Of a stretch of DNA of 64,000 nt, positions 19,046-64,000 are shown piece by piece. The DNA comes from Blastopirellula sp. (lineage in GTDB: Bacteria; Planctomycetota; Planctomycetia; Pirellulales; Pirellulaceae), in contig NZVR01000152.1 in assembly GCA_002701545.1 (NCBI GenBank), forward strand, positions 8,790-72,789. The letters run 5' to 3'. Each line of letters begins with the position of its first letter. Position 1 is the stretch's first letter. The position numbers were made by a program, and so were the translations under genes. The notes below the pieces were generated by a model. It was not told where the DNA came from. It searched no databases and was given only the letters and a program-made list of their open reading frames with translations.

Positions 19046-19106
19046 TTGAGTGTTTTCCCCAAAGTCGGGCGTGCCGATGAAGGTAGTCTTTGGCGATACG
19101 GGGTAA

Positions 19107-28988: not shown

Positions 28989-29155
28989 CAAAGAATGGGC
29001 AAACCTGCGTCTGTCGCTCGCGTGACGTATCGGAGCAGGTTGCAGAGCGAACGGCGCGATGGTTCGTGTTGCTGGTGGGAGTTCCTTACCGGGCAGGTGC
29101 GATGGATTTCCAGCGATACCGGTTCTTGTCTGACGTTAGCGATTATAATTCACGC

Positions 29156-32071: not shown

Positions 32072-32107
32072 GTCCGCTTCCGAGTTATTTGAAACGTGGT
32101 TTTTCGT

Positions 32108-34628: not shown

Positions 34629-37502
34629 ATGATGCGGCGCGTCCCTGTTTTCGTGTTGATTCTGCTGGCCTTTTGGACAGGTTCCGGTCAAGCAGCCGAC
34701 CAGGTTGCTTTCAGTCATGATGTGCAGCCGATCTTTGCTCGACGTTGCCTACAGTGTCATGGTTCGGGTAAGCAAGAGGGCGGCTTGCGATTGGATCACC
34801 GTGAGGGTGCGTTAGCCTCGCTGGAGAGTGACGCGCGGGCAGTTGTGCCCGGGGACTTGGAAGCCAGTGCTTTGTTGGCGCGGGTGACTTCGGACGATCC
34901 TGATCTGCGGATGCCTCCTGAAGGCAAGCCACTTACCGAAGCCGAAGTGGCCAGCTTGCGAGCTTGGATCAAGCAGGGTGCGGAGTGGCAGGGTCACTGG
35001 GCTTTTGAGCCACCGGTGGCGCCACAACCTCCAGCTGTCAAAAACAAAGCGTGGGTGCGCAGTCCGATCGACGCGTTTATTCTCAGCCGTCTCGAAGCCA
35101 AAGGGCTTGCTCCCGCTGCGCCGGCCGACAAGGTCGCTTTGATTCGTCGGGCCTACTATGACCTGACCGGCTTACCGCCGACGCCGGAGCAAGTGGACGC
35201 GTTTGTGGCGGATGCATCGCCAAAAGCCTTTGAAAAAGTAATCGATGACTTACTCGAATCACCCCAATACGGTGAAAAATGGGCGCGGCATTGGTTGGAT
35301 CTGGTGCGTTACGCCGAAACCAATGGTTACGAGCGTGACAGTCGCAAAGATTTGATTTGGAAGTACCGCGACTACGTGATCCGCGCGTTGAATGAAGACA
35401 AGCCATATGATCGCTTCATCAAGGAGCAACTGGCTGGGGACGAACTTCCGGACAAAGACAGCGACAGTGTGACGGCAACAGGCATCTATCGCTTGGGGAT
35501 CTGGGATGATGAGCCGGCAGATCGACCACTGGCCCGCTACGACTATCTGGATGACATTCTCCGGACGACCGGTGAGACCTTGTTGGGGATGACGATCGGT
35601 TGTGGGCGTTGTCACGACCACAAGATCGATCCGATCGCGCAAAAAGATTACTACTCGATGCTGTCGTTCTTTTCGGATATCTCACCGCATGGTGGTGGCA
35701 AGGCCAACCACGTGCCCATTTCTTCGTTCGCGGATCAGGCGGCTTACGAGAAGAAAGTTGCGGACAAGCAGCGTTTGGAGAAAGAGCTGACTGAGAAAAT
35801 CTTTCAGATCGAGACGAGCTTTCTGACCGAACTGAAAGTCAAGCATCCTGAGTTGAAAGTGGACTCGGCAAAGCCAGCTGGTCCGGCGGATGGTGTGGTA
35901 CTGGCGGACTCTCGCAAAGCGGGACAGGAGTGGGAATACACACTTGATAAACCCGCAGGCAACTGGTTTGAGATTGCGTTTGACGACAGCAAGTGGAAGA
36001 AGGGCCCAGGCGGATTTGGTACGCGGGGGACTCCGGGAAGTGTCGTCCGCACGGAATGGCGAACGGGTGAGATTTGGCTGCGAAAAGATTTCGGGCTGAC
36101 CGAAATTCCGGCCAAATTGACGCTGACCATCCACCATGACGAAGACGCCGAAGTGTATCTCAACGGTCAGCAGATCGCGACGTTCAAAGGGTATGTAGGC
36201 AAATACAAACAGCTGGACGTCACGATGCGGGCGGCCGATTTGTTGCAAACGGGGCGCAACACCGTGGCCGTTCATTGTCGGCAAACGGGCGGTGGTCAGT
36301 ATATCGATGTCGGTTTGGTTGGTGACTTTAGCGTGACGACTGCTGCTAGTCTGGCCCGCAAATACGGTAAAGAGATTCTTGGCGCAGCTCGGCTCGATGA
36401 ATGGAAGCAGATGCAACGCCAATTGGCTCAAAGTCAATCGCAGAAACTGGAGCTCAAGACCGAGTACGTGATGGCGGTGGCCGAACGTGGTCGCAATAAA
36501 ACTTGGATCTTGGGACGTGGTAATCCTTCGATGCAAGGCGAGGAAGTGGGTCCGGCATTTCCTCAGGTCCTGAATCCTCCGGTTGCTGAGATTCCCGAGG
36601 AATACAACACGGGTGCCACCACGGGGAAACGCCGCAGGTTGGCAGAGTGGATCGCCAGCAACGACAACCCGTTGACCGCTCGGGTGATCGTCAATCGCCT
36701 CTGGCAGCACCACTTTGGCCGAGGCATTGTCCGCTCGTCCAGTGATTTTGGTTTTCAAGGGACGGCGCCAACCCATCCGGAGTTGTTGGACTGGTTGGCG
36801 GTTGAGTTCCAGCGTGGTGGTTGGAAAATGAAGGCGATGCATAAGCGATTGATGCTGTCCGCCACATACCAGATGTCGTCCGCTCACAATGCCCAAGCGT
36901 ATGCGGCTGACCCGACCAACGATCTCTTTTGGCGATTTGACATTCGCCGTTTGACCGCTGAAGAGATTCGCGACTCGATCCTGGCCGTGACCGGCACATT
37001 GAATCTGCAGATGTTTGGCCCCAGTATTTATCCACCGTTGCCTCAGGAGGTGTTGGCGACCGCTTCGCGGCCCGGCGCCGCTTGGGGGCGATCTTCACCT
37101 GAAGAAGCGGCGCGACGGACAATCTACATTCACGTGAAACGCTCGCTACGCCCGCCCATGTTGGCGAACTTTGATGTCCCGGATACCGACACTCCCTGTG
37201 CCGTGCGCATGTCAACGACCGTTCCCACGCAATCTCTGGGAATGTTGAACAGCAAGTTTCTCAACGATCAGGCTGCCGAGTTTGCAAACCGCTTGCGGGA
37301 AGAAAACGGTGACAGTCGCCAGCAGCAGGTTGCCGCCGCGATCCGCCTTACCACGGGTCGTGTGCCTACGGACAAAGAGGTGCAAGGCGATTTGGAGTTT
37401 CTCGACGAACTTGTCAAAGAAGAACAACTTTCCGCAGCTGACGCGTTACGTCATTACGCGCTGTTGATGTTGAACACGAACGAATTCATCTACCTGGACT
37501 GA
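34629..37502 (+). CDS. PSCyt/DUF1549/DUF1553 family protein with an inserted galactose-binding-like module
   Basis: 'CLQCHGSGK', 'KWARHWLDLVRYAETNGYE', 'CGRCHDHKIDPIAQKDYY' and 'NRLWQHHFGRGIV'. An insert of about 130 aa (WEYTLDKPAGNWFEIAFDDSKWKKGPGGFG...LTIHHDEDAEVYLNGQ) lies between the DUF1549 and DUF1553 parts. Confidence 0.9.
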   Translation: MMRRVPVFVLILLAFWTGSGQAADQVAFSHDVQPIFARRCLQCHGSGKQEGGLRLDHREGALASLESDARAVVPGDLEASALLARVTSDDPDLRMPPEGKPLTEAEVASLRAWIKQGAEWQGHWAFEPPVAPQPPAVKNKAWVRSPIDAFILSRLEAKGLAPAAPADKVALIRRAYYDLTGLPPTPEQVDAFVADASPKAFEKVIDDLLESPQYGEKWARHWLDLVRYAETNGYERDSRKDLIWKYRDYVIRALNEDKPYDRFIKEQLAGDELPDKDSDSVTATGIYRLGIWDDEPADRPLARYDYLDDILRTTGETLLGMTIGCGRCHDHKIDPIAQKDYYSMLSFFSDISPHGGGKANHVPISSFADQAAYEKKVADKQRLEKELTEKIFQIETSFLTELKVKHPELKVDSAKPAGPADGVVLADSRKAGQEWEYTLDKPAGNWFEIAFDDSKWKKGPGGFGTRGTPGSVVRTEWRTGEIWLRKDFGLTEIPAKLTLTIHHDEDAEVYLNGQQIATFKGYVGKYKQLDVTMRAADLLQTGRNTVAVHCRQTGGGQYIDVGLVGDFSVTTAASLARKYGKEILGAARLDEWKQMQRQLAQSQSQKLELKTEYVMAVAERGRNKTWILGRGNPSMQGEEVGPAFPQVLNPPVAEIPEEYNTGATTGKRRRLAEWIASNDNPLTARVIVNRLWQHHFGRGIVRSSSDFGFQGTAPTHPELLDWLAVEFQRGGWKMKAMHKRLMLSATYQMSSAHNAQAYAADPTNDLFWRFDIRRLTAEEIRDSILAVTGTLNLQMFGPSIYPPLPQEVLATASRPGAAWGRSSPEEAARRTIYIHVKRSLRPPMLANFDVPDTDTPCAVRMSTTVPTQSLGMLNSKFLNDQAAEFANRLREENGDSRQQQVAAAIRLTTGRVPTDKEVQGDLEFLDELVKEEQLSAADALRHYALLMLNTNEFIYLD

Positions 37503-37541
37503 TTGCTGTAGCGATCAGTCTGCGATTGTGAGGATATAAAC

Positions 37542-39008
37542 ATGACTAACGCACCGCGTGGAAATTTCTGTGGACGTACCCGCCGTGAGTTTTTATGGCA
37601 AGCTGGTGGTGGGTTTACCGCGCTGCCATTGCTTTCGATGCTGTCCAACGACGGGTTTCTGGCCAATCAGGCAACCGCTGCTGATGGCGCGACGCAATAC
37701 GTGAACCCGCTGGCTCCGAAGCAACCGCATTTTCAGCCGAAGGCCAAGAACGTCATCTTTCTGTTCATGTACGGTGGGCCAAGTCAAATCGACACGTTTG
37801 ACTACAAGCCAAAAATGTACGGAATGGATGGCAAGACGGTGGACGTCAAGACCTTTGGTCGCGGTGGCAAGAAAAACGGGGGGCGAATTGTCGAGCCACG
37901 GTGGAAATTCAAACAGTATGGAGAGTGCGGCAAGTGGGTCAGTGACCTGTTTCCCAATCTGGGGACCTGTGTGGATGACATTGCCTTCTTGCATTCCATG
38001 ACTGCGGATTCGCCCATCCATGGCTCGGCGATGTTGATGATGAATTCTGGCAAGGTTCTCAGCGGGAGCCCTGCTCTCGGGTCGTGGGTGAATTATGGCT
38101 TGGGTACCGAGAACGAAAACCTGCCCGGTTTTGTTGTCATGCTCGATCGTACCGGAGGGCCCATCAGTGGCGCCAAGAATTGGTCGAGTGGCTATATGCC
38201 GGCTTCGTACCAGGGCGTTGTCATGCGATCCTCAGGGGCGCCGATTCTGGATTTGCAGCCACCCGCCGGGATGAGTCGCGCGACACAACGCAAGCTGTTG
38301 GATCGCCTGATTGAGAAAAACAAACAGCACCAGTTAAAGCGTGTTCAGAATTCGGATCTGGCAGCGAGAATCGCCAGCTATGAGTTGGCATACAAGATGC
38401 AACAGTACGCTCCTGAGGCGGTCGATTTGAAAGACGAAACCGCGGAAACGCAGGAACTCTATGGATTGGAGAATCCGCGAACCGAGGATTTTGCCCGCAA
38501 GTGTATTCTGGCGCGTCGTCTGGTCGAACGAGGTGTGCGTTTCATCCAAATCTACTCGGGTGGCAATCATAACGATGCGAACTGGGATGCGCATGGTGAT
38601 TTGGAGAAAAATCACAACTACCATGCGGGGAACACAGACAAGCCGATTGCCGGGCTGTTGAAAGATCTGAAACGTCGCAATTTGCTCGACGAAACGCTCG
38701 TTGTCTGGGGCGGTGAGTTTGGACGTCAGCCAACGGCCGAGTACGCGAAAGGATCGGGGCGAGACCACAACAGCTATGGCTTTACCATGTGGATGGCTGG
38801 CGGAGGTATTCGAGGTGGCGTGAGCGTCGGGACAACCGATGAACTTGGCTCCAAAGCGGTTGAAAAACCATTTCACGTCAAGCATCTGCACGCAACCATT
38901 TTGAACCAGCTGGGCTTTGATCCCAACCAACTATCCTATTTTTATGGCGGGCTGGACCAGAAACTGGTCGGCGTGGAGCACGTGGAGCCGATCCAGGAGA
39001 TCATCTGA
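37542..39008 (+). CDS. DUF1501 protein with Tat signal
   Basis: 'RTRREFLWQAGGG', 'FMYGGPSQIDTFDYKP' and 'GGEFGRQPT...GRDHN'. Confidence 0.9.
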   Translation: MTNAPRGNFCGRTRREFLWQAGGGFTALPLLSMLSNDGFLANQATAADGATQYVNPLAPKQPHFQPKAKNVIFLFMYGGPSQIDTFDYKPKMYGMDGKTVDVKTFGRGGKKNGGRIVEPRWKFKQYGECGKWVSDLFPNLGTCVDDIAFLHSMTADSPIHGSAMLMMNSGKVLSGSPALGSWVNYGLGTENENLPGFVVMLDRTGGPISGAKNWSSGYMPASYQGVVMRSSGAPILDLQPPAGMSRATQRKLLDRLIEKNKQHQLKRVQNSDLAARIASYELAYKMQQYAPEAVDLKDETAETQELYGLENPRTEDFARKCILARRLVERGVRFIQIYSGGNHNDANWDAHGDLEKNHNYHAGNTDKPIAGLLKDLKRRNLLDETLVVWGGEFGRQPTAEYAKGSGRDHNSYGFTMWMAGGGIRGGVSVGTTDELGSKAVEKPFHVKHLHATILNQLGFDPNQLSYFYGGLDQKLVGVEHVEPIQEII

Positions 39009-41689: not shown

Positions 41690-41774
41690 CCACTGACGGG
41701 TTGGTGGCATCAGCGGCAGGAACGTCTCACCCGGCGCCTTGGATGCAAAAACGCAGAGCGATTATAATGCCCGT

Positions 41775-44630
41775 ATGGCATTCCAGCGTCTCATTCTCAT
41801 GGTGGTAGCTTGCACACTGCCGCTCCTGTTCGTATCGATTCATCGAGCGGAAGAGCCAGCGCTGTTGTTTGAGACGCAGGTTCAGCCGGTGTTGATGAAA
41901 AAGTGTGGGAAGTGCCATAGCCAGCGCGTGCAGAAGGCAGCGCTGAATCTGTCAACGTTCGCGGGCTTACGACGCGGTGGTGAGTCAGGAGAACCCTTGC
42001 TTGCCGAGACTCTGGCGGACAGTTTGTTGTGGACCATGATCGATGGTGGTGACATGCCGCCGGCAGGTGAGCCGCCTTTAAGTGACGCCGAAGTGGCTGG
42101 GATCCGCAAGTGGATTCGCGCGGGTGCTCCGTCGCAGCAGCCAGCGACTCCCGAGCAGGAGGTCCACCAACACGATGTGCTGCCTATTGTTCTGTTGCGC
42201 TGCACCGTTTGTCATGGCGGGCGTCTCCAGGATGGCGGTCTCGATCTGCGTACGCCGGCGGCGATGCTGCGTGGCGGCGATAGCGGCCCGGCGTTTGTAC
42301 CTGGCGATCCCGATGGCAGTCGCATGTTGCAGCGGATTGCAAGCGAAGCCTGTCCGCCACGCGACAAGCTGTTGAAATTCTTTGTTCGGCGACCGCCGCC
42401 CAATGAAGTTGAGGTGCTGCGCCAGTGGATTGCCGCGGGAGCTCCGGTGGTGGATATGAGTCCGGATGTCGCGACACGCGATCCGGACCCACTGGTCTCC
42501 GACACGGATCGTCAGCACTGGGCCTTTCGGCCGTTGTCGCAGACTGAAACCGCGCGCTCCGTGGATGAATTCGTTCTGCCGAAGCTGCAAGCCGCGGGGC
42601 TGAGTTTCTCGGCGTTCGCCGACCGGGATACGCTCATACGCCGCGCCTACCTGGATTTGATCGGCATGCCCCCGAGTGTTGACGAATGGAAACGCTGGCG
42701 TGCTTGTGAAGACTCGGATTGGTATCGCCAGATGGTCGACGCGTTGCTTGATTCGCCACACTATGGCGAACGTTGGGGACGGTATTGGCTGGACGTTGCG
42801 GGCTATGCCGATTCAGAAGGAGGAGTGTCGGCGGATCCGGTGCGGCAAGTTGCCTGGAAGTATCGCGATTACGTGATTCGAGCGTTTAATCGCGACAAAC
42901 CTTACGACCGCTTTCTGACCGAGCAAATCGCCGGCGACGAGTTGCACGACTACGAAAACGCACCGCGCGTTACCGACGAGATGGTCGAGCATTTGATCGC
43001 CACGGGATTTTTGCGAATGGGAATTGATCAGACCGGTTCGCGAACGATGAACTTTGTTCCGGAAAGGTTAGGGGTGATCGATGACGCCATTCGCGTGCTC
43101 GGTTCCGGTGTCCTGGGCCTGACTCTGGAATGCGCCCGCTGTCATTCGCACAAATACGACCCGGTGCCCCAACGCGACTACTATCGATTCAAAGCGATTT
43201 TTCAAGGTGCTTTGGATGAGCACGATTGGCTGACGTTTAAGAATCGATCTTTGAACGTGGCAACTGCCACAAGGCGTCAGCGCGTGGCGAAACGCAATCC
43301 GCCTTTGTTGGCTGAGATCAAGAAGCAGACGAATCGGCACAAGCGGGCGATCGCTGAGCAGCAGCTGGAGACGTTGCGTCAGCACTATCCGGGGCAGTCC
43401 GAGGCAGATCGCACTGCGACGTTGCAAGCCTTACGGATCGCCGACAACAACCGCTCGCAAACACAGCGGATTTTGGTTGAGCAACTTCAATCGGCCGAGG
43501 TGATTCCCGCCGCGGAGCAGCCTCAGGCAGTATTGGATGCGCGGTCCCGAGTGGCCGCAATGGAGCACGAGATAGCAAATCTGCGACGACAGTTAGAGGA
43601 ACCGCTGACGATTCGAGCTTTATGGGATCGTGGTAAGCCTTCGCCCACCTATCTGCTGCGGCGCGGCGAGCATGATCAACCAGGTCAATGGGTTGGCCCA
43701 GGGGTGCCGTCGGTGTTGACCGATGGCAAAACGCCCTTCCAGGTGACGCCTCCGTTTGTAGGTAAGACCGGGCGTCGTTTGGCGTTTGCGCGTTGGTTGA
43801 CGTCACCCGAGCATCCGCTCACCGCACGTGTCATGGTGAATCGCATCTGGCATCATCATTTCGGCACGGGGCTGGTCAAGAGTTTGGAGAATTTTGGACT
43901 CCAAGGCGAACGACCATCTCATCCCGAGTTATTGGATTGGTTGGCCGCCGAATTCATGGCACGCGGCTGGAGCGTGAAAGCCATGCATCGTTTGATCATG
44001 AACTCGCGGACGTATCGGCAGTCGAGTCGGATTGTCGGTGATCGGCAGCAGCGAGATCCTCAGAATCGGTTGCTGTCGCACATGCCGTTACGGCGCATGG
44101 ATGCAGAGACGTTGCGGGATTCGCTGCTGCGCGTTTCGGGTAAACTGGACGTCACTCCGTTTGGTGTGCCGGATGCAGTTGCGGTCAATCATGCTGGGTT
44201 GGTGAGTGTGTTGCCGACGCCGAAGGGTGGCTGGCGGAGGAGCATCTATATTCAGTACCGACGTACTGAGATTCCCACCATGATGGATACGTTTGACTAT
44301 CCGGAGATGGGTCCGAACTGCGTCGTTCGCAATGTGTCGAATGTGTCACCGCAGTCATTGATGTTGATGAACAACGGGCATGTGCACGCATTGGCAGGCG
44401 CGATGGCCAAACGCATTCTCGCTCAGGAGATACCGGAGGGCGAACATGGATTGCTGGTCGATGCGGTTTATCAACTAGCGCTCACGCGACAGCCTACCCC
44501 ACGCGAACGTGACTTGGGTGTGGAGACTTACGGCAAGTTGTCTGCTGCCTGGCAACATGATTCGATGGCGGCCATGACCTCTTACTGCCATCTGATTCTG
44601 AATTCGGCCGCGTTTCTTTATATCGATTGA
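41775..44630 (+). CDS. PSCyt (two CxxCH motifs)/DUF1549/DUF1553 family protein
   Basis: 'CGKCHS' and 'CTVCHGG', 'RWGRYWLDVAGYADSEG', 'CARCHSHKYDPVPQRDYYRFKAIF' and 'NRIWHHHFGTGLV'. ATG 41775 (MAFQRLILMVV) is preferred as the start. Confidence 0.9.
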   Translation: MAFQRLILMVVACTLPLLFVSIHRAEEPALLFETQVQPVLMKKCGKCHSQRVQKAALNLSTFAGLRRGGESGEPLLAETLADSLLWTMIDGGDMPPAGEPPLSDAEVAGIRKWIRAGAPSQQPATPEQEVHQHDVLPIVLLRCTVCHGGRLQDGGLDLRTPAAMLRGGDSGPAFVPGDPDGSRMLQRIASEACPPRDKLLKFFVRRPPPNEVEVLRQWIAAGAPVVDMSPDVATRDPDPLVSDTDRQHWAFRPLSQTETARSVDEFVLPKLQAAGLSFSAFADRDTLIRRAYLDLIGMPPSVDEWKRWRACEDSDWYRQMVDALLDSPHYGERWGRYWLDVAGYADSEGGVSADPVRQVAWKYRDYVIRAFNRDKPYDRFLTEQIAGDELHDYENAPRVTDEMVEHLIATGFLRMGIDQTGSRTMNFVPERLGVIDDAIRVLGSGVLGLTLECARCHSHKYDPVPQRDYYRFKAIFQGALDEHDWLTFKNRSLNVATATRRQRVAKRNPPLLAEIKKQTNRHKRAIAEQQLETLRQHYPGQSEADRTATLQALRIADNNRSQTQRILVEQLQSAEVIPAAEQPQAVLDARSRVAAMEHEIANLRRQLEEPLTIRALWDRGKPSPTYLLRRGEHDQPGQWVGPGVPSVLTDGKTPFQVTPPFVGKTGRRLAFARWLTSPEHPLTARVMVNRIWHHHFGTGLVKSLENFGLQGERPSHPELLDWLAAEFMARGWSVKAMHRLIMNSRTYRQSSRIVGDRQQRDPQNRLLSHMPLRRMDAETLRDSLLRVSGKLDVTPFGVPDAVAVNHAGLVSVLPTPKGGWRRSIYIQYRRTEIPTMMDTFDYPEMGPNCVVRNVSNVSPQSLMLMNNGHVHALAGAMAKRILAQEIPEGEHGLLVDAVYQLALTRQPTPRERDLGVETYGKLSAAWQHDSMAAMTSYCHLILNSAAFLYID

Positions 44631-44634
44631 CCAG

Positions 44635-46104
44635 ATGGAAAATCAGCGAACAACTCGCCGTGATTTTTTTGCCCGCACCAGCGATGGCATCATGGGAGCT
44701 GCGCTGACGCATTTGTTGGCCAACGATTTTTGGGGTGGCACGTCAGCGTTGGCCGAGGATGCAGCGGAGCCGTCGTCTTTCGACCTCAAACCGAAACATC
44801 CTCATCACCCGGCACAAGCGACATCCGTCATTCAACTGTTCATGAATGGCGGTCCGAGTCAGATGGACTTGTTCGATCCCAAACCGCTGCTGACCAAATT
44901 GGACGGGCAGCCGTTTCCGGGCAGTATCGAAGAGATTGGTAACTCGAACACGGCCGACATCGGTGTCATGATGGGCGGTCAGTTCCCCTTCGCTCGGCAC
45001 GGTGACAGCGGGATGTGGATGGCGGACGTGTTGCCCCACACGGCAGCGTTAGCCGATGAGCTCTGTGTGGTGAACTCGATGTGGACCGACCATCCTAACC
45101 ATGACAATGCGCTATACAAAATTCATAGCGGTCGGTTATTCATGGGGTATCCGACGTTGGGTTCCTGGACCGTTTACGGCTTGGGGAGTGAGAATCAGAA
45201 TTTACCTGCTTACGTCGTGCTGAGTGATCCGCTCGGTCTGCCCAAAAATGGGACGCGTAACTGGACTGCCGGGTTTCTACCGCCGCTGTATCAAGGGACG
45301 CGATTGAGGCCCACAGGGTCTCCGCTGTTGAACTTGCAGCCACAGTATGAACAGCCATCCGCGGTGACAGAAGCAGCTCGGGGACTGCTGACGCAACTCG
45401 ACGAGATTCACCGCGAGCAGCGACCGCATTACCCCGAGCTCGATGCACGGATTGAGTCTTACAGTCTGGCGGCCAGGATGCAGATGTCCGCTGGTGAAGC
45501 GCTGGATTTGTCACGTGAATCCCAGCACACGCTGGAGCTGTATGGCGTGGGAGAGCGGTGGACGGATTCCTATGCTCGCCGCTGCCTGTTGGCCCGCCGA
45601 TTGGTGGAACGTGGCGTCCGGTTTGTACAAATTTTTCTCGAAGAGCAGCCGTGGGATAGCCATGCCGACTTGGGGCCGAACCATCAAGGGGCGTGCTTGC
45701 GAACGGACAAGCCGGTCGCCGGGCTGCTGCGCGATTTGAAGCAGCGCGGTCTGTTGGATTCGACTTTGGTCATCTGGGGTGGTGAGTTTGGGCGTACGCC
45801 GACGACCCAGCGATCGGCTAATGGGTACTCAGGTCGTGATCACAACATGCAGGCGTTCACGTCCTGGATGGCCGGCGGTGGCGTGCAAGGAGGTACCACG
45901 TACGGGGCGACAGACGACTTTGGACATCAAGTGGTGGATGCGCCTGTCAGCGTTCATGACTTTCACGCCACGATTTTGCATCTGCTCGGTTTGCATCATC
46001 ATCGCTTGTTCTTTCCACGAAACGGTCTGGAAGAACGTTTGACCGGTTTCGATCCACCTCGCGTGGTACACGAGATTCTCAAAGCTGCCCAGGTGAAGGC
46101 ATGA
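44635..46104 (+). CDS. DUF1501 protein with Tat signal
   Basis: 'TRRDFFARTSDG', 'FMNGGPSQMDLFDPKP' and 'GGEFGRTPT...GRDHN'. Confidence 0.9.
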   Translation: MENQRTTRRDFFARTSDGIMGAALTHLLANDFWGGTSALAEDAAEPSSFDLKPKHPHHPAQATSVIQLFMNGGPSQMDLFDPKPLLTKLDGQPFPGSIEEIGNSNTADIGVMMGGQFPFARHGDSGMWMADVLPHTAALADELCVVNSMWTDHPNHDNALYKIHSGRLFMGYPTLGSWTVYGLGSENQNLPAYVVLSDPLGLPKNGTRNWTAGFLPPLYQGTRLRPTGSPLLNLQPQYEQPSAVTEAARGLLTQLDEIHREQRPHYPELDARIESYSLAARMQMSAGEALDLSRESQHTLELYGVGERWTDSYARRCLLARRLVERGVRFVQIFLEEQPWDSHADLGPNHQGACLRTDKPVAGLLRDLKQRGLLDSTLVIWGGEFGRTPTTQRSANGYSGRDHNMQAFTSWMAGGGVQGGTTYGATDDFGHQVVDAPVSVHDFHATILHLLGLHHHRLFFPRNGLEERLTGFDPPRVVHEILKAAQVKA

Positions 46105-56975: not shown

Positions 56976-59771
56976 TTACTCGATATACAAAAAGCGGTTG
57001 GTGCCGAAGAGTGCCTGGCAATAAGTCGCCAGCGCTGCGCGATGGGCATCGGAACCAGGTGGTGGATTGTTGGTGAAATTCTCAGTTTGCTGCTGTAGGA
57101 AACGGTGTGCCCGAGTGAGCTGGACCTGATCAGGGGGTTGGCCAAAGACCAGTTCCCAGCCGCGCCGTAATTGCTCGAGTGGCTGATCAGGTTGGTCGTG
57201 CAAGAGTCGTTCCGCCAGGGCTGCTGAAGTATTCAAAATGAAATCACTGTTCATCAGCATCAAGGATTGAGGAGCGACGTTGGACGATGCTCGATCCGTA
57301 CAATGGGGAGCTAATTCGGGTAAGTCAAAACTGGCCAACACGCTGAGCGGTCTGCTGCGTCGCACTTGAATGTAGACACTGCGGCGAAACGCTTCTTCGC
57401 CCAAGGGAATTGGCTTGGTCGGTTTTCGTTCGCCATCGAGATTCTCTTTTCCCAGAACGATCTGGCCGACCGCGTCTTCCATCACAGGGACGGGTTCGCC
57501 GTACATCTTGGTACTCAGTTCGCCCGTGAGTGTCAGGATCGCGTCCCGCACGGTCTCGGATTCGAGGCGACGCAAGGGCCACCGCCCCCAGAGTTGGTTT
57601 TCGGGATCTCGTAGCACCAGATCGGCACTGCCAACAGCCGTTTGTTGATACACCCCGGATGACAGGATGCGGCGGTGCAAGTGTTTACTGCTCCACTGGG
57701 AGTCGACGAGTTCGGTGGCCAGCCAGTCGAGAAGTTGAGGATGTGTGGGACGATCTCCCAGGAAGCCAAAGTCGCCAGTGGTGGCCACAATCCCGCGACC
57801 AAAATGATGGGCCCAGATACGATTGGCCAAGACGCGTGCCACCAAGGGATGCTGACCGCTAGTGAGGTAGCGGGCAAATTGCATGCGTCGACCGCTGGAT
57901 TTCAGTTGTGGGTTATCCGGGATCGCCTGGGCTTGCAAGACACTGAGCCCCTGCGGTCGGACTTCCTCGCGAGGTTGTTGATGATCACCGCGATGAAAGA
58001 CAAAGGTGGCGGGGATCGCTCCGGGGGCTTCGTTCAGGACACGTAGGAAGTGTTCTTGGGGGATCGTATCGCGAATCGCTTGTGCTTCGCTGGCCAGTTT
58101 CTTGAGTTCGTCTTGGATGCGAAACGAACGGATTTCGGCAACGGCCGTTGTGTAACGTGCTAATTCCTCCGCGCCTTTAGGGTCGGTTTGTGCCAAAGAT
58201 TTTTCGTCGAGGATACCCGGGCCGTTCTGATTGGCGTCTGCCAACCATGCAGCTAGTTGGTCTGCACGTCGCTGTTCCAAGTCCTTGGCCCGTGCTTCAC
58301 GTCTGCGCTCGTAGAGGTAGAGTGAGCCTTCCGTGATGTTGGCTACGTTGACATGCGATTCCAACAGTTGTTTTTGCTCGGGGGTACGTTTGGCTGCTGG
58401 GGTCTTGAAGGCGGTACGCAAGGGTTGCTGCAATGACGTGTCCACCATGAGCAATTCATGTTCCAACGTCTTGTCGATGAAGAAGGTGACGCGTTCTTTG
58501 CGTCGCGCATCCACCAGCTTGGCTTGGGATTCAATGTCCGTCCGCTGTTGTTTGTCCTGATCGCTATAGAGCGAGACGAGGCGTTGGGAAGGTGTTTGCC
58601 ATTGTTTCCAATTCAGGGCGGGCTCGAAAATCGCACGCAGTTGGTAATAGTCGCGTTGTGGTATCGGATCATAACGGTGGTCGTGGCATTGCGCGCATTG
58701 CACGGTCAGTCCGAGCACCGCGCCGCTGACAATCTGAAGTGTGTCCGCAATGACTTGATTGCGCGCCACGTTTTGATCGATACCAGACGACGCCGTACCG
58801 TCAGGGGCCATGCGCAAGAACCCCGTCGCGGCCAGAGTTTCGATCGTCTCGGGGCTCAAGTCAGTATGTGGCCAACCCGCTAACTCATCGCCGGCCAGTT
58901 GTTCGAGGAGGAACTGCGAGTAGGGCTTGTCCGCATTGAAGGCGCGAATGACATAGTCGCGATATCGCCAGGCATGTTCCCGAACCCGATCTTCGTCGTT
59001 GTAGCCTTCCGAGTCGGCGTAGCCTGCGACATCCAGCCAATGACGCCCCCAACGTTCCCCATAACGGGGTGACGCCAGTACGCGATCGATCAACCGTTGC
59101 CAGGCATCGGGACGCGGGTCAGCGAGAAAACGTTGGATCGCTTCCGGTGTCGGAGGAATGCCGAGCATGTCGAGAAAAATCCGCCGCACCAAGGTTGGCT
59201 GGTCGGCTCGAGGCGAAAGGCCGACGGGCGTTGCCTCCGAGGGAGCGTCTGGCGTGGAGGCGTTCAATTGGTTCAGGACAAATGCGTCGATTCCTTCGTC
59301 GATGGCGAATGAGGTGCTCGGCAACAGGGGACGCGCCACGGGACGAAAAGACCACCAGTTGCGTTCCTCTTGCGTAAAGTAATTGCCAGCGTCGAGAGAC
59401 TCGGGTTCCGCCTTCTCGGTAGGTGCCCCAGCTTGGATCCAGCGTCGCAGAATCGCTACGGCTTCGGGGGCCAGTTGTTTGTCCTGGTCCGGTGGCATTT
59501 CCCCAGCGGCAACACGTTGCAGTAGCAGACTGTTTTCCGCATCACCCGGTACGATGGCTTGGCCGGATTCTCCGCCTTTCAGGATGAAGCGACGCAGACG
59601 CAAATCTAAGCCGGCTTCTGTCACGCCCCGTTCGCCATGACAATGAAAACAGTGTTCTTTGAGTAGCGGGCGGACGTCTTTTTCGTATTGCAGTTCGGTC
59701 GCGCTGACCGTGACACTGACGGCCGCTGTGAACAGGAACGCGTGAAGGATGAGTAGCCGCATCGGAGCCAT
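56976..59771 (-). CDS. PSCyt/DUF1549/DUF1553 family protein
   Basis: 'CFHCHGERG', 'RWGRHWLDVAGYADSEGY', 'CAQCHDHRYDPIPQRDYYQLRAIF' and 'NRIWAHHFGRGIV'. Start ATG 59771 (MAPMRLLILHAFLF, signal-like). Confidence 0.9.
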   Translation of the reverse strand: MAPMRLLILHAFLFTAAVSVTVSATELQYEKDVRPLLKEHCFHCHGERGVTEAGLDLRLRRFILKGGESGQAIVPGDAENSLLLQRVAAGEMPPDQDKQLAPEAVAILRRWIQAGAPTEKAEPESLDAGNYFTQEERNWWSFRPVARPLLPSTSFAIDEGIDAFVLNQLNASTPDAPSEATPVGLSPRADQPTLVRRIFLDMLGIPPTPEAIQRFLADPRPDAWQRLIDRVLASPRYGERWGRHWLDVAGYADSEGYNDEDRVREHAWRYRDYVIRAFNADKPYSQFLLEQLAGDELAGWPHTDLSPETIETLAATGFLRMAPDGTASSGIDQNVARNQVIADTLQIVSGAVLGLTVQCAQCHDHRYDPIPQRDYYQLRAIFEPALNWKQWQTPSQRLVSLYSDQDKQQRTDIESQAKLVDARRKERVTFFIDKTLEHELLMVDTSLQQPLRTAFKTPAAKRTPEQKQLLESHVNVANITEGSLYLYERRREARAKDLEQRRADQLAAWLADANQNGPGILDEKSLAQTDPKGAEELARYTTAVAEIRSFRIQDELKKLASEAQAIRDTIPQEHFLRVLNEAPGAIPATFVFHRGDHQQPREEVRPQGLSVLQAQAIPDNPQLKSSGRRMQFARYLTSGQHPLVARVLANRIWAHHFGRGIVATTGDFGFLGDRPTHPQLLDWLATELVDSQWSSKHLHRRILSSGVYQQTAVGSADLVLRDPENQLWGRWPLRRLESETVRDAILTLTGELSTKMYGEPVPVMEDAVGQIVLGKENLDGERKPTKPIPLGEEAFRRSVYIQVRRSRPLSVLASFDLPELAPHCTDRASSNVAPQSLMLMNSDFILNTSAALAERLLHDQPDQPLEQLRRGWELVFGQPPDQVQLTRAHRFLQQQTENFTNNPPPGSDAHRAALATYCQALFGTNRFLYIE

Positions 59772-59784
59772 GATCAGTTTGCGC

Positions 59785-61119
59785 TTAAAACAGCTGAGGG
59801 ATCGGACGACCGTCTTCCGGGACGATGGGGATCGGTCGACCTCGTGAGTTAGTCCAGTGAGCATGGAGATCGATTCCCAGATGCTTGAACGTTGTGGCAG
59901 CAAGATCTTGGGGACGCACGGCGTCAGTGTTGATCGCGCCGCCACGCGCATCGGTCGAACCAATGACTTGGCCGTGCTGCAAGCCTCCTCCGGCCATGAG
60001 CATGGACATGACATTGGTCCAGTGGTCGCGTCCTGCATCTTTGTTGATGACCGGCGACCGCCCGAATTCACCCATCATCATGACCAGCGTGCTATCCAGC
60101 AATCCTCGCTGTTCTAAATCCTGAATCAAGGTATGTAGGGTGCGATCGACTCGAGGTAGTAAAGGAGTAAGCCCTTTTTCAATACCGCCCCAGCGGACCT
60201 GATCGCCGTGATGGTCGAAATAGCCCCAGGCTCCACTGACCAAGACAAAGGTGACTCCGGCTTCGACCAGACGCCGTGCCAGGAGCGCTTTTTCACCGAT
60301 GCTTTCCTTGCCATAGGCCTGACGAGTCGCGTCTGATTCTTGCCCCAGGTCAAACGCTTGCTGGACATTTCCAGATCGGACCATCTCGTAGGCTTGTCGG
60401 GTAAAGCGATCAACGCGATCGAGGGTGCGGTTGTTGTCGAGTTGGCGACCAAAGCGGTCGAGCTGCTGTTTCAGGGTGTCGCGGTCTTGTAGCCGAGGAA
60501 CGGTCACTCCGGAAGGCATCGCGAATTTGCCTGCTAACTTGTGGCCTTTCACAGGCGCGTAGCGGCTGCCCATGTCTCCTGCTTCCCAGACGTCGGACGT
60601 CCAGGTATTTGCCAGACCGACGAAAGCTGGCATTTCCTCGCTATTCGATCCGCGGAACTTTGCTGCGATGGAACCCATCGATGGGTACCCGCCACCGTCG
60701 CGGCCATCGTTCGTGCGACGTGCCAGTGGATTGCCCGCTTGCATGGTGATCGGCGTGTGATTGCTGGCGCTACAGTCGACCGAGCGGATGATCGACAGTT
60801 TGTCTGCAATACTCGCTTGTAGAGGGAGATGTTCACCGAACTGAACACCGGGAAGTCGGGTGGGAATCACGCCATAAGGTCCGCGGATTTCACTCGGAGC
60901 ATTTGGCTTCGGGTCCCACATGTCGATGTGACTTGGACCACCAGATAGCCAGAATAAAATCACGGCTCCCCGACCCGAGTTCGCGGGCGCTGCTTGGGCG
61001 CCCAAGTTCATCCAGGGGGCAAGTGAAGCCGTACCCATACCTGCCAGTCCGGCTTGCAACAGCCAGCGCCGTGAACCAACGCGGATAGTCGGCGAACTCG
61101 AAGAGGTTGGAGGGAGCAT
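59785..61119 (-). CDS. DUF1501 protein with Tat signal
   Basis: 'SRRWLLQAGLAGMG', 'FWLSGGPSHIDMWDPKP' and 'MGEFGRSP...GRDHW'. Confidence 0.9.
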   Translation of the reverse strand: MLPPTSSSSPTIRVGSRRWLLQAGLAGMGTASLAPWMNLGAQAAPANSGRGAVILFWLSGGPSHIDMWDPKPNAPSEIRGPYGVIPTRLPGVQFGEHLPLQASIADKLSIIRSVDCSASNHTPITMQAGNPLARRTNDGRDGGGYPSMGSIAAKFRGSNSEEMPAFVGLANTWTSDVWEAGDMGSRYAPVKGHKLAGKFAMPSGVTVPRLQDRDTLKQQLDRFGRQLDNNRTLDRVDRFTRQAYEMVRSGNVQQAFDLGQESDATRQAYGKESIGEKALLARRLVEAGVTFVLVSGAWGYFDHHGDQVRWGGIEKGLTPLLPRVDRTLHTLIQDLEQRGLLDSTLVMMMGEFGRSPVINKDAGRDHWTNVMSMLMAGGGLQHGQVIGSTDARGGAINTDAVRPQDLAATTFKHLGIDLHAHWTNSRGRPIPIVPEDGRPIPQLF

Positions 61120-61393: not shown

Positions 61394-63034
61394 TTACAGC
61401 TCAATCGACTCGACTTCGCGGACGAACCTTGCGGCATCGTCGCTCAGGTACGAGGCGACGACGTGGAACACCGCGTCACTGAAGCCACCGATGTTCAGGA
61501 TATCGTCACGTTCCGGAGCTTGTGTCGATCCGTACGGCTGGACGTCGATGCAGACCAGCTTTGGCGAGCGTGTCCCCATCCGCTGCTGGTTTGCTACGAA
61601 CGCCTGCCACTCGGTCAGGACGCCCGTTGCACTCCGGCCGCCGTAAGCGAACGGTCGGTCACTGTCGATCCAACTCTCGTTGTCGCTGACCAGCACCACG
61701 CCCGCGAACGTTCGCTTGCGGTACTTGGTGTTTGCCTGATGCAGCGGGGTGGAGCAGTCGGTTCCACCGCCACCGTAAGTCGCCAGCCGTTCCGACAGAC
61801 TCAAGATCGAGTCGGACGGATCGATGCGGACGTCGTACGCTCGCGTGTCAAACGGAATGACCACGCTGTCCGGGTTCTTACGCAAGATCGCCGCGGCGAA
61901 CAGGGCCGCCACGTCGACACAGCGCATCTTGGTCGTGCCACCTCGAGCACCGTAACCCGTAATCGGGCAGCTCATCGAACCGGATGTATCCAGACCGATG
62001 ACCACCGGGCCCGGCAGCTCCGGCACATTGCCGCAGGCGATCTCGGCTGCGCGATGCAGCGCCGTATTGATCTGGTGCGGAAGTTCCGGGGCGGCGTTCA
62101 GGTACGCAGCCAAGAACTGGTACGGGAACTGGCGTGAGCGGCGGATCGCATGTGCATCCGTCAGGCGACTTGCCACGTAACTGACCATCTCCCGCCCTGC
62201 CTTATCGCTCGTCAGCACCTCGTGACGCAGGAGCGTGTTGAGATTCATCCGCAGCGCCTGAGGTCCCATCTGGCGAGCGATTGCCTTCCAGACCAGCGGC
62301 CCCTTGGCAGCGTCAGCCAGCAGATCCCAGCGTACAGACAGGTGACCCGCAATCCGTGCCTGGGCTTGAGCGGTAGTCGCCTGGCGGTACGCGATCAAAC
62401 CCTGGACTTGCGCCGGCAGGTCAGTTGCGTTGGCCGGAGCCCACTTTTCGATCTCCTTGCCCGTTAACCAACCGAACAGCGCACGTCGCGCGTTGTCCCG
62501 CGGGGTTGGTCGAGCCAGCCTGAGGACATCGCGCAGGCTCGGATCGTTACCGATCGAAGCCGACAGCAACTGATTCACGGACGCTTCGTTCAGCCATCGC
62601 TGGAACGCGCGCTGCAGGCTGGACGACAAGCTGGTGCGACCGAACTGTCCTGAGCGGATCATCTGGAACATGGTGCGCAGCACGCGACCGTTATCCACGA
62701 CCCGATCAAACGTCCGGTGCAGTAGCTCGGTGTCACGCTTGGACAGCACGACCAACAGCGCCGCTGGCATGTCCTTCATGTAGGCGCGTTCCCGGGCGTA
62801 GACGGCCAGCTTGGCCAGGAAGACGTTGTCGTCGACCTGATCGATCAGCGTGCGCATTTCGTCTAGCTGGTGTTCGGCACGGGTGTAGTAGGTGCCGTTG
62901 AAGCAGCCGGTGGCAGCCATCTGGGCCAGCGCGTGCTTGGGAGTGAACTTGTACGCCCGACCTCCAGCCTCGTTGACCGTATTGGTCCGCACGAACCGAC
63001 TCTTGATACTGGAAAACAAAGTCTTGTTGGCCAT
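61394..63034 (-). CDS. rsr: Ro60/Rsr orthologue (TROVE domain + C-terminal vWA domain)
   Basis: '[44 protein letters not shown]' is the conserved bacterial Ro60 N-terminus. HEAT-like TROVE repeats follow. The C-terminal vWA has the MIDAS motif '[11 protein letters not shown]'. ATG 63034 is preceded by GAAGGAGG (63039-63046). The ORF-track TTG at 63049 is not needed. Confidence 0.9.
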
Positions 63035-63047
63035 CGTGACCTCCTTC

Positions 63048-63120
63048 AAAAATGACCCGACGAAATCTTGGGTGCAGAGACTCGGCTGGTGGTGTTGGAC
63101 TCCGCGCCGGCAGTCGGATC
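63048..63120 (-). ncRNA. Candidate Y-RNA-like unit Y3 (short form, no T-arm), ending in U5 directly before the rsr RBS
   Basis: Closing helix GAUCCGAC (63113-63120) / GUCGGGUC (63054-63061), 8 bp with one G.U. The shared 5' motif UGCCGGCGCGGAGUCCA follows the helix. The 3' side is AUUUUU (63048-63053), abutting GAAGGAGG. Confidence 0.4.
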
Positions 63121-63129
63121 GTGGACGCG

Positions 63130-63277
63130 CACTCGACGAAGTTGTGGGGTAGAGCGAATCCCTGCGAAGCCGCGCACGCGCGGTTCACAGGGTCCGGCCC
63201 CATCGATAGATTTCTCTGAGGGGGCCGGGCGGGAATCGAACCTGCTAAGCCATGGACTCCACTCCGGCAGTCGAGTG
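63130..63277 (-). ncRNA. Candidate Y-RNA-like unit Y2 with a tRNA-like T-arm and loop-closed acceptor-like helix
   Basis: Closing helix CACUCGAC (63270-63277) / GUCGAGUG (63130-63137), perfect 8 bp. D-like arm GCC-GGAGUGGAGUCCAU-GGC. T-arm GCAGG-UUCGAUU-CCCGC (63229-63245, one A.C mismatch). An 8-bp hairpin CCGGCCCC (63221-63228) / GGGGCCGG (63194-63201) follows with a 19-nt loop, then a further stem CCCUG...CAGGG enclosing CCGCG-CGUG-CGCGG. Confidence 0.45.
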
Positions 63278-63319
63278 TGTTTTGTGTGCCGACAGACGCT
63301 GTCTGCCGGAGCGTGTTTT

Positions 63320-63467
63320 AAAAAAATGACCGACGAGGTGTTTGAACCAGAGATTGACGATGCTCTGCCTTTGAGCTACGGCGCTACGTGCTGAAGTCGC
63401 GCCGGTGGGACTCGAACCCACAACCTTCGGGTAATGAACCATGGACTCCACTTCGGCAGTCGGTCAT
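63320..63467 (-). ncRNA. Candidate YrlA-type Y RNA (unit Y1): circularly permuted tRNA mimic with terminal U7
   Basis: Closing helix AUGACCGAC (63459-63467) / GUCGGUCAU (63326-63334), perfect 9 bp, then U-tract to 63320. Inside: T-arm GUGGG-UUCGAGU-CCCAC (63405-63421). Next comes the acceptor-like helix CGGCGC (63399-63404) / GCGCCG (63379-63384), closed by a 14-nt loop. Then U-A plus a canonical D-arm GCUC-AAAGGCA-GAGC (63362-63376). Confidence 0.5.
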
Positions 63468-63475
63468 ATCGGGGT

Positions 63476-63592
63476 GGCGACGAAGTATCGGTCAGATACG
63501 TTTCCATTGCTGCACGGGACTCGAACCCGTCAACCGAGTGCGGTTGCCAGACTCATTGAGCAGAGCCGATGGATTCCGATCCGGTCGTCGCC
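63476..63592 (-). ncRNA. tRNA-like unit Y0 (7-bp acceptor-like helix + ACC, long variable arm, T-arm, extra hairpin)
   Basis: GGCGACG (63586-63592) pairs with CGUCGCC (63476-63482), followed by ACCCC. D-like arm CCG-GAUCGGAAUCCAU-CGG. Stem GGCUC/GAGUC with an 8-nt loop UGCUCAAU. Variable-arm-like hairpin CAACCG-CACU-CGGUUG. T-arm ACGGG-UUCGAGU-CCCGU (63514-63530). A 31-nt insert containing GUAUC-UGACC-GAUAC precedes the 3' acceptor strand. Confidence 0.4.
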
Positions 63593-63617
63593 GTGTTTTT
63601 TCAAGTGTTTCCAAAGG

Positions 63618-63698
63618 CACTCAACGAAGTGGTATCGAGACGGTGCTTATGGCACCAGGTTCACAGCCTGGGATGGAGTCCCGACGGGCAGTTGAGCA
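63618..63698 (-). ncRNA. Candidate Y-RNA-like unit X (short form, no T-arm)
   Basis: Closing helix UGCUCAAC (63691-63698) / GUUGAGUG (63618-63625), 8 bp with two G.U. Shared 5' motif UGCCCGUCGGGACUCCAU. Internal hairpins CCAGG-CUGUGAA-CCUGG and GGUGC-CAUAA-GCACC. Confidence 0.35.
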
Positions 63699-63706
63699 TC
63701 GATGGC

Positions 63707-63784
63707 GACCTTCCAACGAAGGAATGGCTCAGATACGTTTCAGCTCCCAAAGTTGATGTAATCCGAACCGACAGTTGGTTGGTC
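63707..63784 (-). ncRNA. Candidate Y-RNA-like unit W (short form), starting 2 nt after the tRNA-Cys-like gene
   Basis: Closing helix GACC-AA-CCAAC (63774-63784) / GUUGG-AA-GGUC (63707-63717): 5 + 4 bp around an AA/AA internal loop. Shared 5' motif UGUCGGUUCGGAUUACAU, plus the GAAACGUAUCUGA motif also present in Y0. Confidence 0.35.
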
Positions 63785-63786
63785 AG

Positions 63787-63857
63787 AGACGCAGGTGGGA
63801 ATCGAACCCACTTCCACTGCTTTGCAGGCAGTTGCCTGGCCATCTGGCTCCCGCGCC
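63787..63857 (-). tRNA. tRNA-Cys(GCA)-like gene (cloverleaf complete, non-canonical G8/G14, no encoded CCA)
   Basis: Acceptor GGCGCGG/CUGCGUC (7 bp, two G.U). D-arm GCC(A)-GAUGGCC-(A)GGC with A13.A22. Anticodon arm ACUGC-CUGCAAA-GCAGU (anticodon GCA at 63823-63825). 4-nt variable loop. T-arm GUGGG-UUCGAUU-CCCAC (63795-63811). Discriminator U, as expected for tRNA-Cys. Position 8 is G rather than U. Confidence 0.55.
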
Positions 63858-63933
63858 ATTGTATGTGCAAAAAAGTCCTTCCTCGTTGGCCTTCCTGGTT
63901 AGCGTTTCGTCAGTTTGCTTGTTTCGAGGCGAG

Positions 63934-64000
63934 TAGCCCGTCCAGGAATTGAACCTGGTCCAACAGCTTCGGAAGCTGTCATGCGATCCAACACACCCAC
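63934..64000 (-). tRNA. tRNA-Arg(CCG)-like gene, 5' end beyond the window edge (partial)
   Basis: Anticodon arm ACAGC-UUCCGAA-GCUGU (anticodon CCG at 63970-63972). T-arm CCAGG-UUCAAUU-CCUGG (63942-63958). 3' acceptor strand ACGGGCU + discriminator A. The D-arm is weak (GUGU/GCAU with two G.U), and the acceptor 5' strand is not visible. Confidence 0.5.

Follow-up and report, generated by a model that had tools for sequence, protein, structure and literature searches.

A stretch of 64,000 nucleotides (nt) of DNA from the planctomycete Blastopirellula sp. (GenBank assembly GCA_002701545.1, contig NZVR01000152.1, positions 8,790 to 72,789), referred to here as the window, carries near its end a minus-strand array of six RNA units (63784-63054) that is bounded by a gene for tRNA-Cys(GCA) and by rsr, the bacterial gene for Ro60. 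The six units are very probably genes for Y RNAs, the partners of the Rsr protein encoded just downstream. This identification is based on the adjacent same-strand Rsr, the match of one unit, Y1, to the bacterial Y RNA family YrlA, a shared junction motif, the covariation of the helix that closes each unit, a distribution among related genomes that is linked to rsr, and precedents in other bacteria. Ro60 is a conserved protein of RNA quality control and an autoantigen in humans, and Y RNAs are its obligatory partners. To our knowledge, few bacterial Y RNAs have been studied, these being Yrn1 and Yrn2 of Deinococcus, and YrlA and YrlB of Salmonella and Mycobacterium. An earlier reading of the same DNA from its letters only (the sequence-only reading) had placed six paralogous units with complementary ends at 63048-63784, and these units exist, their end complementarities requiring small corrections. 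It had also stated that all coordinates were verified on the plus strand, which is not the case: the units are encoded on the minus strand, and the RNAs it gave are reverse complements of the plus strand. From 5' to 3', the array consists of the following units:

63784-63707, minus strand: unit W, 78 nt, a hairpin-form Y-like RNA
63698-63618, minus strand: unit X, 81 nt, a short form with two apical hairpins
63592-63476, minus strand: unit Y0, 117 nt, with a hairpin, a second hairpin and a T arm
63467-63326, minus strand: unit Y1, 142 nt, a YrlA-like RNA
63277-63130, minus strand: unit Y2, 148 nt, with a T arm and a long GC hairpin
63120-63054, minus strand: unit Y3, 67 nt, the shortest form

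The units have a common core, CRAC-UGYC ... YUC-GUYG, and each is closed by a helix formed between its own 5' and 3' ends. This terminal helix, the end pairing expected of a Y RNA, is seen in both the minimum-free-energy and the centroid folds of all six units. Its sequence differs from copy to copy. In X it consists of UGCUCAAC/GUUGAGUG (8 base pairs (bp), two of them G.U), in Y0 of GGCGAC(G)/(C)GUCGCC (6-7 bp), and in Y3 of GAUCCGAC/GUCGGGUC (8 bp, one of them G.U), and it comprises 9 bp in Y1 and 8 bp in Y2. The arms of W had been described as complementary, as they are, but they enclose a 2x2 A.A/A.A loop between GACC/GGUC and CCAAC/GUUGG, so that, of the 11 positions, only 9 are paired. 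Similarly, the proposed UG(C/U)C after C(G/A)AC is found in most units but is replaced by GACC in Y0, and the proposed 3' end, (C/U)UUC, is found in most units but not in Y1, which ends in CCUC, the true consensus being YUC. Among the six copies, 20 of the 24 outer helix positions pair with the unit's own partner arm, a figure matched by just 4 of 720 permutations of the partners.

The decisive evidence for this helix is comparative, since single-sequence folding is indecisive: the folding energies of the units are modestly better than those of shuffled sequences (z between -0.8 and -5.0). A search with the Rsr protein yielded 80 related loci, all in Planctomycetota and mainly in Pirellulales and Planctomycetales, whose proteins are 66-88% identical. 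From these loci and the window, 265 units were collected by two conserved motifs alone, leaving the outer complementarity unused. In this collection, 3.18 of the four outer helix positions are paired, compared with 1.78 +/- 0.055 when partners are shuffled. The inner purine:pyrimidine pair is G:C in 179 units, A:U in 69, G:U in 10 and A:C in 7, and an unbiased mutual-information scan of all 5' against all 3' columns ranked the five variable helix positions as its top five. In a gap-free alignment of the ends of 150 motif-defined units (alignment A3), the 8-bp closing helix is 88.8% paired, with double compensatory changes at five of its eight pairs (39-74 each), and beyond 8 bp the pairing drops to background level. 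The covariation score for this helix together with a second helix after the junction was 0.460, as opposed to 0.222 +/- 0.009 for shuffles, none of 500 of which reached the observed value, and all register slides of the tested structure scored at most 0.228. These permutation, shuffle and register-shift controls exclude a chance origin of the pairing and bear out the earlier proposal that the helix is selected for. The helix may change in sequence provided that its pairing is preserved, and its sequence is not the same among paralogues, while the junction is fixed.

As an observation on the flanks of the units in alignment A3, units are often preceded by ACA(C), and a U tract often stands right after the closing helix, giving a 3' consensus of ...GUCGNNNN-UUU (in the window, 63319-63325 and 63048-63053). 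Such a tract is reminiscent of a terminator-like tail or of the oligo-U at the 3' end of eukaryotic Y RNAs.

The distribution of the units is tied to that of rsr. The 5' module is found upstream of rsr, and on the rsr strand, in 66 of the 67 loci with enough flanking sequence, in 1-7 copies, compared with 0-1 copies in a control region of equal length; the unit architecture is therefore present in related genomes, a point on which the sequence-only reading had made its proposal depend. A covariance-model search, which had also been proposed, was done with a model (R1) that joins the 5' and 3' ends by AAAA and was meant to find all units by way of local ends. All 88 of its hits at E<=1e-3 fall on the rsr strand, but this end-module model reaches only units whose interior is no longer than about 90 nt, and in the window it matches just W (36.2 bits, E=1.5e-9) and Y3 (33.1 bits, E=1.6e-8), with filters on or off. 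Because R1 cannot count the long forms, the unit counts given here are based on motifs. In the closest relatives, the order of the locus is Cys-W-X-(a unit of about 176 nt)-Y0-Y1-Y2-Y3-rsr, and this conserved synteny argues that the units are old, distinct paralogues and not recent repeats.

These data bear on the notion that the units are extragenic or mobile repeats, similar to repetitive extragenic palindromes or miniature inverted-repeat transposable elements, that gathered here by chance. Terminal inverted complementarity and the presence of multiple copies are what such elements would show. The copies are, however, not near-identical; CRACUGYC-N5-GGA has five exact matches at 63101-63777 on the minus strand and one elsewhere in the 64 kb, so that five of the six lie at this locus on one strand; and throughout the 80 related loci the units are confined to the region upstream of rsr and to its strand. 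A varying helix next to a fixed junction is, moreover, the opposite of what is found at transposon ends. An origin as mobile repeats is consequently scarcely credible, and the distribution is that expected of Y RNA genes.

Two further features were noticed at the related loci. In many relatives, a seventh unit of about 176 nt is present between the X- and Y0-type units (for example, L001 3268-3443, L013 3151-3326 and L010 3116-3290). It shares the end module, lacks a T arm and has no counterpart in the window, where the corresponding spacer is 63593-63617. In addition, two distinct rsr loci, both preceded by Y-like units, are present in several genomes or metagenome-assembled genomes (L051 and L058 in CP197414; L046 and L061 in R. 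maiorica SM1; and the pairs L023 and L024, L013 and L041, L070 and L074, and L020 and L026), which suggests that paralogous Ro60/Y RNA systems exist within one cell.

Whereas the ends are shared, the interiors of the units are diverse, comprising a permuted tRNA mimic (Y1), a mimic in tRNA order (Y0), a T arm with a hairpin (Y2), and hairpins (W, X and Y3). Orthologues among the related rsr loci were counted as the number of loci with an orthologue. In W (29 loci), UGUC comes after the closing helix and leads into an inner stem, GGUUCGGA/UCUGAGCC, the whole forming a long hairpin; the inner stem is compensated in a set of 28 orthologues, and the A.A loop is replaced by Watson-Crick pairs in some species. 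The consensus of the nine X orthologues (9 loci) consists of an inner stem and two apical hairpins, with compensation in both the closing helix and the inner stems. Y3 (4 loci with full-length orthologues, and partial matches) is a minimal form, the outer helix pairs of which are compensated among orthologues. No tRNA-like module is found in W, X and Y3. In Y0 (6 loci), the closing helix is followed by two hairpins and then by a T arm (ACGGGUUCGAGUCCCGU), which is the canonical order of arms in tRNA, and the consensus structure of the six orthologues retains the three hairpins and the helix. In Y2 (10 loci), the second helix is long and the T arm contains an internal mismatch that is conserved; there is also an 8-bp acceptor-like stem, with a long GC hairpin at the place of the D arm, which is lacking in the consensus of the ten orthologues. 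The folding z-score of Y2 is -4.99.

Y1, with orthologues at 52 loci, alone displays the YrlA order of T arm, acceptor-like stem-loop and D arm. It contains the motif GCCGAAG and a T arm (GUGGG-UUCGAGU-CCCAC), after which come an acceptor-like stem of 6 bp and the D arm (GUAGCUCAAAGGCAGAGC; UAGCUCAAAGGCAGAGC), with conserved loops of the tRNA type. In an alignment of 60 sequences, 16 of 26 pairs are compensated, supporting the closing helix, the T arm, the acceptor-like stem and the D arm, and the 6-bp stem is rich in compensatory changes. In permissive mode, the Rfam YrlA model (RF02553) matched Y1 at 39.8 bits (E=4.8e-7), over the T and D arms, and Y1 can thus be regarded as a divergent YrlA. 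YrlA RNAs are substrates of the tRNA enzymes TruB and DusA, and in M. smegmatis of RNase P and CCA addition. Cleavage by RNase P has been linked to an acceptor-like stem of 7 bp (PMC4201824), one pair longer than the predicted 6-bp stem of Y1. The earlier division into units with T arms (Y0, Y1 and Y2) and short forms (W, X and Y3) is correct and parallels that between YrlA and YrlB or Yrn2. The likeness to YrlA, however, extends to Y1 and not in any simple manner to Y0, which has an order similar to that of Yrn1, or to Y2, which carries a hairpin instead of a D arm.

The presence of T arms in three units, and of a D arm as well in Y1, directly after tRNA genes, raises the alternative that the units are functionless remnants of a decaying tRNA array, such as pseudogenes or fragments of tandem-tRNA junctions. 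In addition, the arm order of YrlA is that of a tandem-tRNA junction, which is a source of false positives according to Chen et al. (PMC4201824). This alternative is highly improbable, since W, X and Y3 have the same end module without tRNA features, the unit order is syntenic, and the compensatory substitutions in the closing helix and inner stems across genera (at 66-88% Rsr identity) are not what pseudogenes would show. Nor do the units qualify as tRNAs themselves: with an ARAGORN cloverleaf or an Rfam RF00005 score of at least 29 bits as the standard, ARAGORN called only the tRNA-Cys in the window, and the best RF00005 score within the units was 15.3 bits (E=6).

The junction that follows the closing helix provides a further link to Rsr. 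A 5' motif, GNCGAA(N0-1)G, has been proposed as the Rsr recognition element and a likely contact (Chen et al. 2014, PMC4201824). In the planctomycete units, the junction, a UGCC bulge followed by G-R, reads G-N-C-G-A/G and is thus a candidate for this motif, as judged from its sequence, and the suggestion of the sequence-only reading that UGCC may be the Ro60 site gains from the overlap. The corresponding sites are GCCGAAG in Y1, an exact match, GCCGGAG in Y2, GCCGGCG in Y3, GCCCGUC in X, GUCGGUU in W and ACCGGAU in Y0. Across the family, the junction is U-G-Y-C, in which G-Y-C is imposed by the collecting motif, followed by G in 70% and by G or A in 85%. The column statistics suggest a plan in which a stem of 8 bp is followed by a 5'-strand bulge, UGCC, a G:C pair (75%), an R:U pair (95%) and an internal loop.

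The presumed partner of these RNAs is encoded by the neighbouring gene. The product of rsr contains the Pfam domains TROVE (PF05731) and vWA_Ro60 (PF25045), and its best match in the PDB is 2NVO, the D. radiodurans Rsr (E=1.5e-21, residues 18-529), with further matches to 9L5Y, 9NEN and 1YVP (Thermus-phage, human and Xenopus Ro60). It is a full-length orthologue of Rsr/Ro60, with the TROVE HEAT-repeat ring and the C-terminal vWA domain. It is called divergent because NCBIfam RNA-bind_Rsr (NF041674) scores 88.6 bits over the whole length, whereas the cut-off curated for this equivalog, 900, is far higher. The distance from rsr is 19-750 nt for the six units, all of them upstream and on its strand, as is expected of bacterial Y RNA genes, and the connection to Ro60 that had been suspected from the letters is borne out by a full-length Rsr starting 19 nt beyond the last unit.

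A phage origin of this gene was considered and rejected: the nearest phage Rsr (39% identity), from Myxococcus phage Mx1, is encoded among other neighbours, with no units in the annotation, and the remaining genes of the window are typical planctomycete chromosomal genes, including several pairs of PSCyt/PSD1 and DUF1501 genes. A reading of the array as protein-coding was rejected as well, since the plus-strand open reading frames (63068-63394, 63388-63756 and others) span the unit borders and oppose the conserved RNA structure.

Several observations weigh against the Y RNA identification or limit its reach. YrlA scores are below the Rfam gathering score of 69, both for Y1 in the window and for the Y1-type units of seven related loci (36-52 bits), and the YrlA model matched neither the other five units of the window nor the other unit types in relatives. 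The strict GNCGAA is exact in Y1 only, and in the family its A-A positions are occupied by G in 61% and A in 24%, and then by U in 47%, C in 24% and A in 20%. The second helix (5' columns 17-23 of alignment A3) is 70.7% paired with some covariation, which amounts to moderate support, and in X, Y1 and Y3 single-sequence folding gave weak z-scores. Finally, neither a sigma-70-like promoter nor an intrinsic terminator was found on the minus strand within the array by a scan that knows the sigma-70 consensus, from which planctomycete promoters may differ; the weight of this negative is weak, and internal promoters may exist.

The low scores also have a practical consequence. At gathering thresholds, Rfam reported just tRNAs and one group II intron domain in the window and 15 related loci, and, since all scores of the units are below the gathering score, Rfam-based annotation misses all of them. 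Given their E-values, units of the Y1 type would probably have been caught by a dedicated search such as that of Chen et al. 2014.

The immediate surroundings of the units consist of the following features:

63934-64000, minus strand: tRNA cut by the end of the window, 5'-truncated (Rfam tRNA, 30.9 bits)
63786-63857, minus strand: tRNA-Cys(GCA) without encoded CCA (ARAGORN; Rfam tRNA, 50.4 bits)
63278-63325, minus strand: spacer of 48 nt between Y1 and Y2, read from the sequence
63040-63047, minus strand: Shine-Dalgarno-like sequence of rsr, GAAGGAGG, read from the sequence
61394-63034, minus strand: rsr, bacterial Ro60 orthologue of 546 amino acids with its ATG at 63034 (Pfam, NCBIfam and PDB matches)

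The array is closely tied to tRNA genes. The first base of W is 1-2 nt from the 3' end of tRNA-Cys, and the window covers the last two tRNAs of the upstream array only (63786-64000). The truncated one is probably tRNA-Arg, the penultimate gene of the tRNA array, because its anticodon loop is CCG and Arg tRNAs precede Cys at this place in related loci. In such loci, 15-29 same-strand tRNA genes stand before the Y units within the 3-4 kb of flank that was fetched. Dense arrays of 24-29 tRNA genes per ~3 kb, extending past the fetched flank, are seen at L001 1-3087, L013 38-2972, L036 3-2950 and L042 22-3201. Ten or more tRNAs are present in 14 of 57 loci, with just two opposite-strand tRNAs overall, and the tail of the array is syntenic (...Thr-Arg-Arg-Arg-Cys). 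Of the 55 loci that have a same-strand tRNA upstream, 44 have tRNA-Cys(GCA) as the final one ahead of the units, and in 24 loci this gene stands immediately next to the first unit. Arrays of tRNA genes in Planctomycetes have been reported in surveys, without mention of Ro60, TROVE or Y RNA.

Individual tRNA arrays show peculiarities of their own. At L010, a group II intron domain (2771-2847, Rfam RF00029, 64.2 bits) is located just before tRNA-Cys, where relatives hold more tRNAs, and insertion of an intron may have broken up the array there. At L072, two unusual candidates were called by ARAGORN within the array, at 403-474 and 1454-1526: a tRNA whose anticodon has four bases (CCUA) and a tRNA-SeC(TCA).

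Inter-unit spacers are mostly 8-9 nt, the only long one being that between Y1 and Y2, which has U7 at its start. It contains a 9-bp hairpin, CCGGCAGAC-AGC-GUCUGUCGG, the 3' arm of which, GUCUGUCGG, resembles a degenerate 5' module of a unit, and in relatives its position is taken by an additional unit or by a 150-nt spacer. From its sequence, this spacer may be the leftover of a lost unit or a processing site.

The arrangement suggests how the Y RNAs may be made and used. The array would be transcribed with the upstream tRNA or tRNAs, and probably also with rsr, and then cut into single RNAs; co-transcription is suggested by the lack of a detected promoter or terminator in the array, the abutment on tRNA-Cys, the short spacers and the spacing of 19-26 nt to rsr. 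The 5' end of W would be generated by the 3'-end processing of tRNA-Cys, and trimming as far as the closing helices would remove the 8-9 nt spacers. Rsr is predicted to bind the fixed junction and the helix of each unit, and the variable interior would act as an effector or tether module that directs Rsr to, or gates its access to, effectors such as PNPase, to which Rsr is tethered by a Y RNA in Deinococcus and Salmonella. Six such adaptors could provide one Ro60 ring with several specificities.

A more far-reaching view is possible but, taken as a whole, doubtful. It holds that in Planctomycetota a giant same-strand operon of tRNAs ends in a conserved module made up of the Y RNA array and rsr, and that tRNA 3' processing would free the first Y RNA from the tRNA-Cys to which it is fused. 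The YrlA-type unit would be an evolved tandem-tRNA junction, so that the locus would depict the origin of Y RNAs from tRNA arrays. Y3, placed at the ribosome-binding region of rsr, would let Rsr titrate its own synthesis against the output of Y RNAs and tRNAs, and the Ro60 ribonucleoprotein with its six to seven adaptors would serve as a surveillance system for the products of the array.

The position of Y3 also bears on a different interpretation, in which the units act chiefly in cis as a structured 5' leader of rsr with repeated putative Rsr sites, through which Rsr would autoregulate translation or mRNA stability. The Shine-Dalgarno-like GAAGGAGG begins 6 nt past the end of Y3 and stops 5 nt short of the ATG, leaving 19 nt between Y3 and the start codon. 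In 33 of 73 loci the last unit, regardless of its type, likewise ends 19-26 nt from the start of rsr, and no terminator was found between the array and rsr, all of which would suit a leader. Six to seven conserved paralogues with elaborate tRNA-like interiors, however, exceed the needs of an operator, and in characterised systems the RNAs upstream of rsr are processed, stable and bound by Rsr (PMC4201824), making a chiefly cis-acting role improbable. The two roles are nevertheless compatible, and one in cis is conceivable for the last unit, next to the function of the units as Y RNAs.

Elsewhere, the window contains at least four PSCyt1/PSCyt2/PSD1 and DUF1501 pairs and one PSD2-5/PSCyt3 and DUF1552 pair (16364-20422, 29066-33502, 34629-39008, 41739-46104 and 56976-61119). 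These PSCyt/PSD families are planctomycete-specific, expanded and of unassigned function, and one pair lies immediately downstream of rsr.

The array thus represents a known kind of system that is unusually rich, with six units here and up to seven in relatives, extending current understanding rather than overturning it. A full-text literature search found no published description of Y RNAs with Ro60 in Planctomycetota, the species list of Chen et al. lying outside this comparison. Five of the six subtypes match no Rfam family, and both strands of the predicted Rsr-binding helix are conserved. Six to seven conserved and structurally different Y RNA subtypes, one of them recognisable as YrlA, are hereby added to the phylum. 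The more than 250 units amount to a natural mutagenesis set, in which a fixed junction (CRAC-UGCC-GR / YUC-GUYG) is set against an outer helix where only pairing counts, a distinction that can guide the mapping of the bacterial Rsr binding site. Most worth following are the link to the tRNA array and the possibly autoregulatory placement of Y3.

Comparison with known systems places these units among established Y RNAs. YrlA-like RNAs are found in over 250 bacteria and phages, encoded on the rsr strand and no more than 4 kb from that gene, and each studied species has two or more Y RNAs, including a tRNA-like one and a long hairpin (PMC4201824). The YrlA family (Rfam RF02553) includes RNAs of S. 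Typhimurium and M. smegmatis, and a crystal structure is available (6CU1; bioRxiv 10.1101/312249). Like YrlA, the units of the window adjoin rsr on the same strand and have an end stem with a candidate GNCGAA-type motif, and Y1 and its 60 relatives share the layout of T arm, acceptor-like stem and D arm. They differ in that the Y1 type falls short of the YrlA gathering score and the other five units are not YrlA. Furthermore, both strands of the Rsr helix are conserved in the planctomycete units (CRAC.../...YUC-GUYG), whereas in the YrlA of Salmonella and M. smegmatis the 5' strand alone is recognisable. The short forms W, X and Y3 resemble YrlB (of Salmonella and M. smegmatis) and Yrn2 in consisting of the end module and simple stems, their apical parts being different. 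In M. smegmatis, YrlA, YrlB and rsr are made as one precursor (PMC4201824), and the Salmonella rsr-yrlBA-rtcBA operon is reported to be regulated by damaged tRNAs (PMC7790460), a control that the physical tie of the array to tRNA genes would fit, as it would the tRNA mimicry of YrlA.

The closest parallel in layout is D. radiodurans, in which tRNA-Asp, Yrn2 and Yrn1 form a polycistronic precursor upstream of rsr (PMC4201824). Both loci have several different small RNAs upstream of rsr (in D. radiodurans also the small RNAs a, b and d), a tRNA at the start of the array, with co-transcription known there and inferred here, a mix of tRNA-like and hairpin forms, and conservation of both helix strands; the order of two hairpins and a T arm in Y0 is similar to that of Yrn1. 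In contrast to D. radiodurans, one strict junction consensus extends across six to seven units, the tRNA is tRNA-Cys, and in relatives an array of 20-30 tRNA genes lies upstream. The resemblance reaches as far as the metazoan Y RNAs (hY1, hY3-5, and X. laevis Y3 bound to Ro60 in 1YVP), which likewise occur as several paralogues per genome and have a terminal stem of about 8 bp and a 5'-strand bulge ending in C, after which G and A pair with U/C-U before an internal loop. The ...C-CGA(A) motif of the units resembles the metazoan GGUCCGA, the correspondence of pairs being suggested by the column statistics. The bulge of the units, UGCC, however, has 4 nt where the metazoan one has 1 nt, their interiors are tRNA-like, and the genes are arrayed and probably polycistronic, as opposed to the separate RNA polymerase III genes of metazoans.

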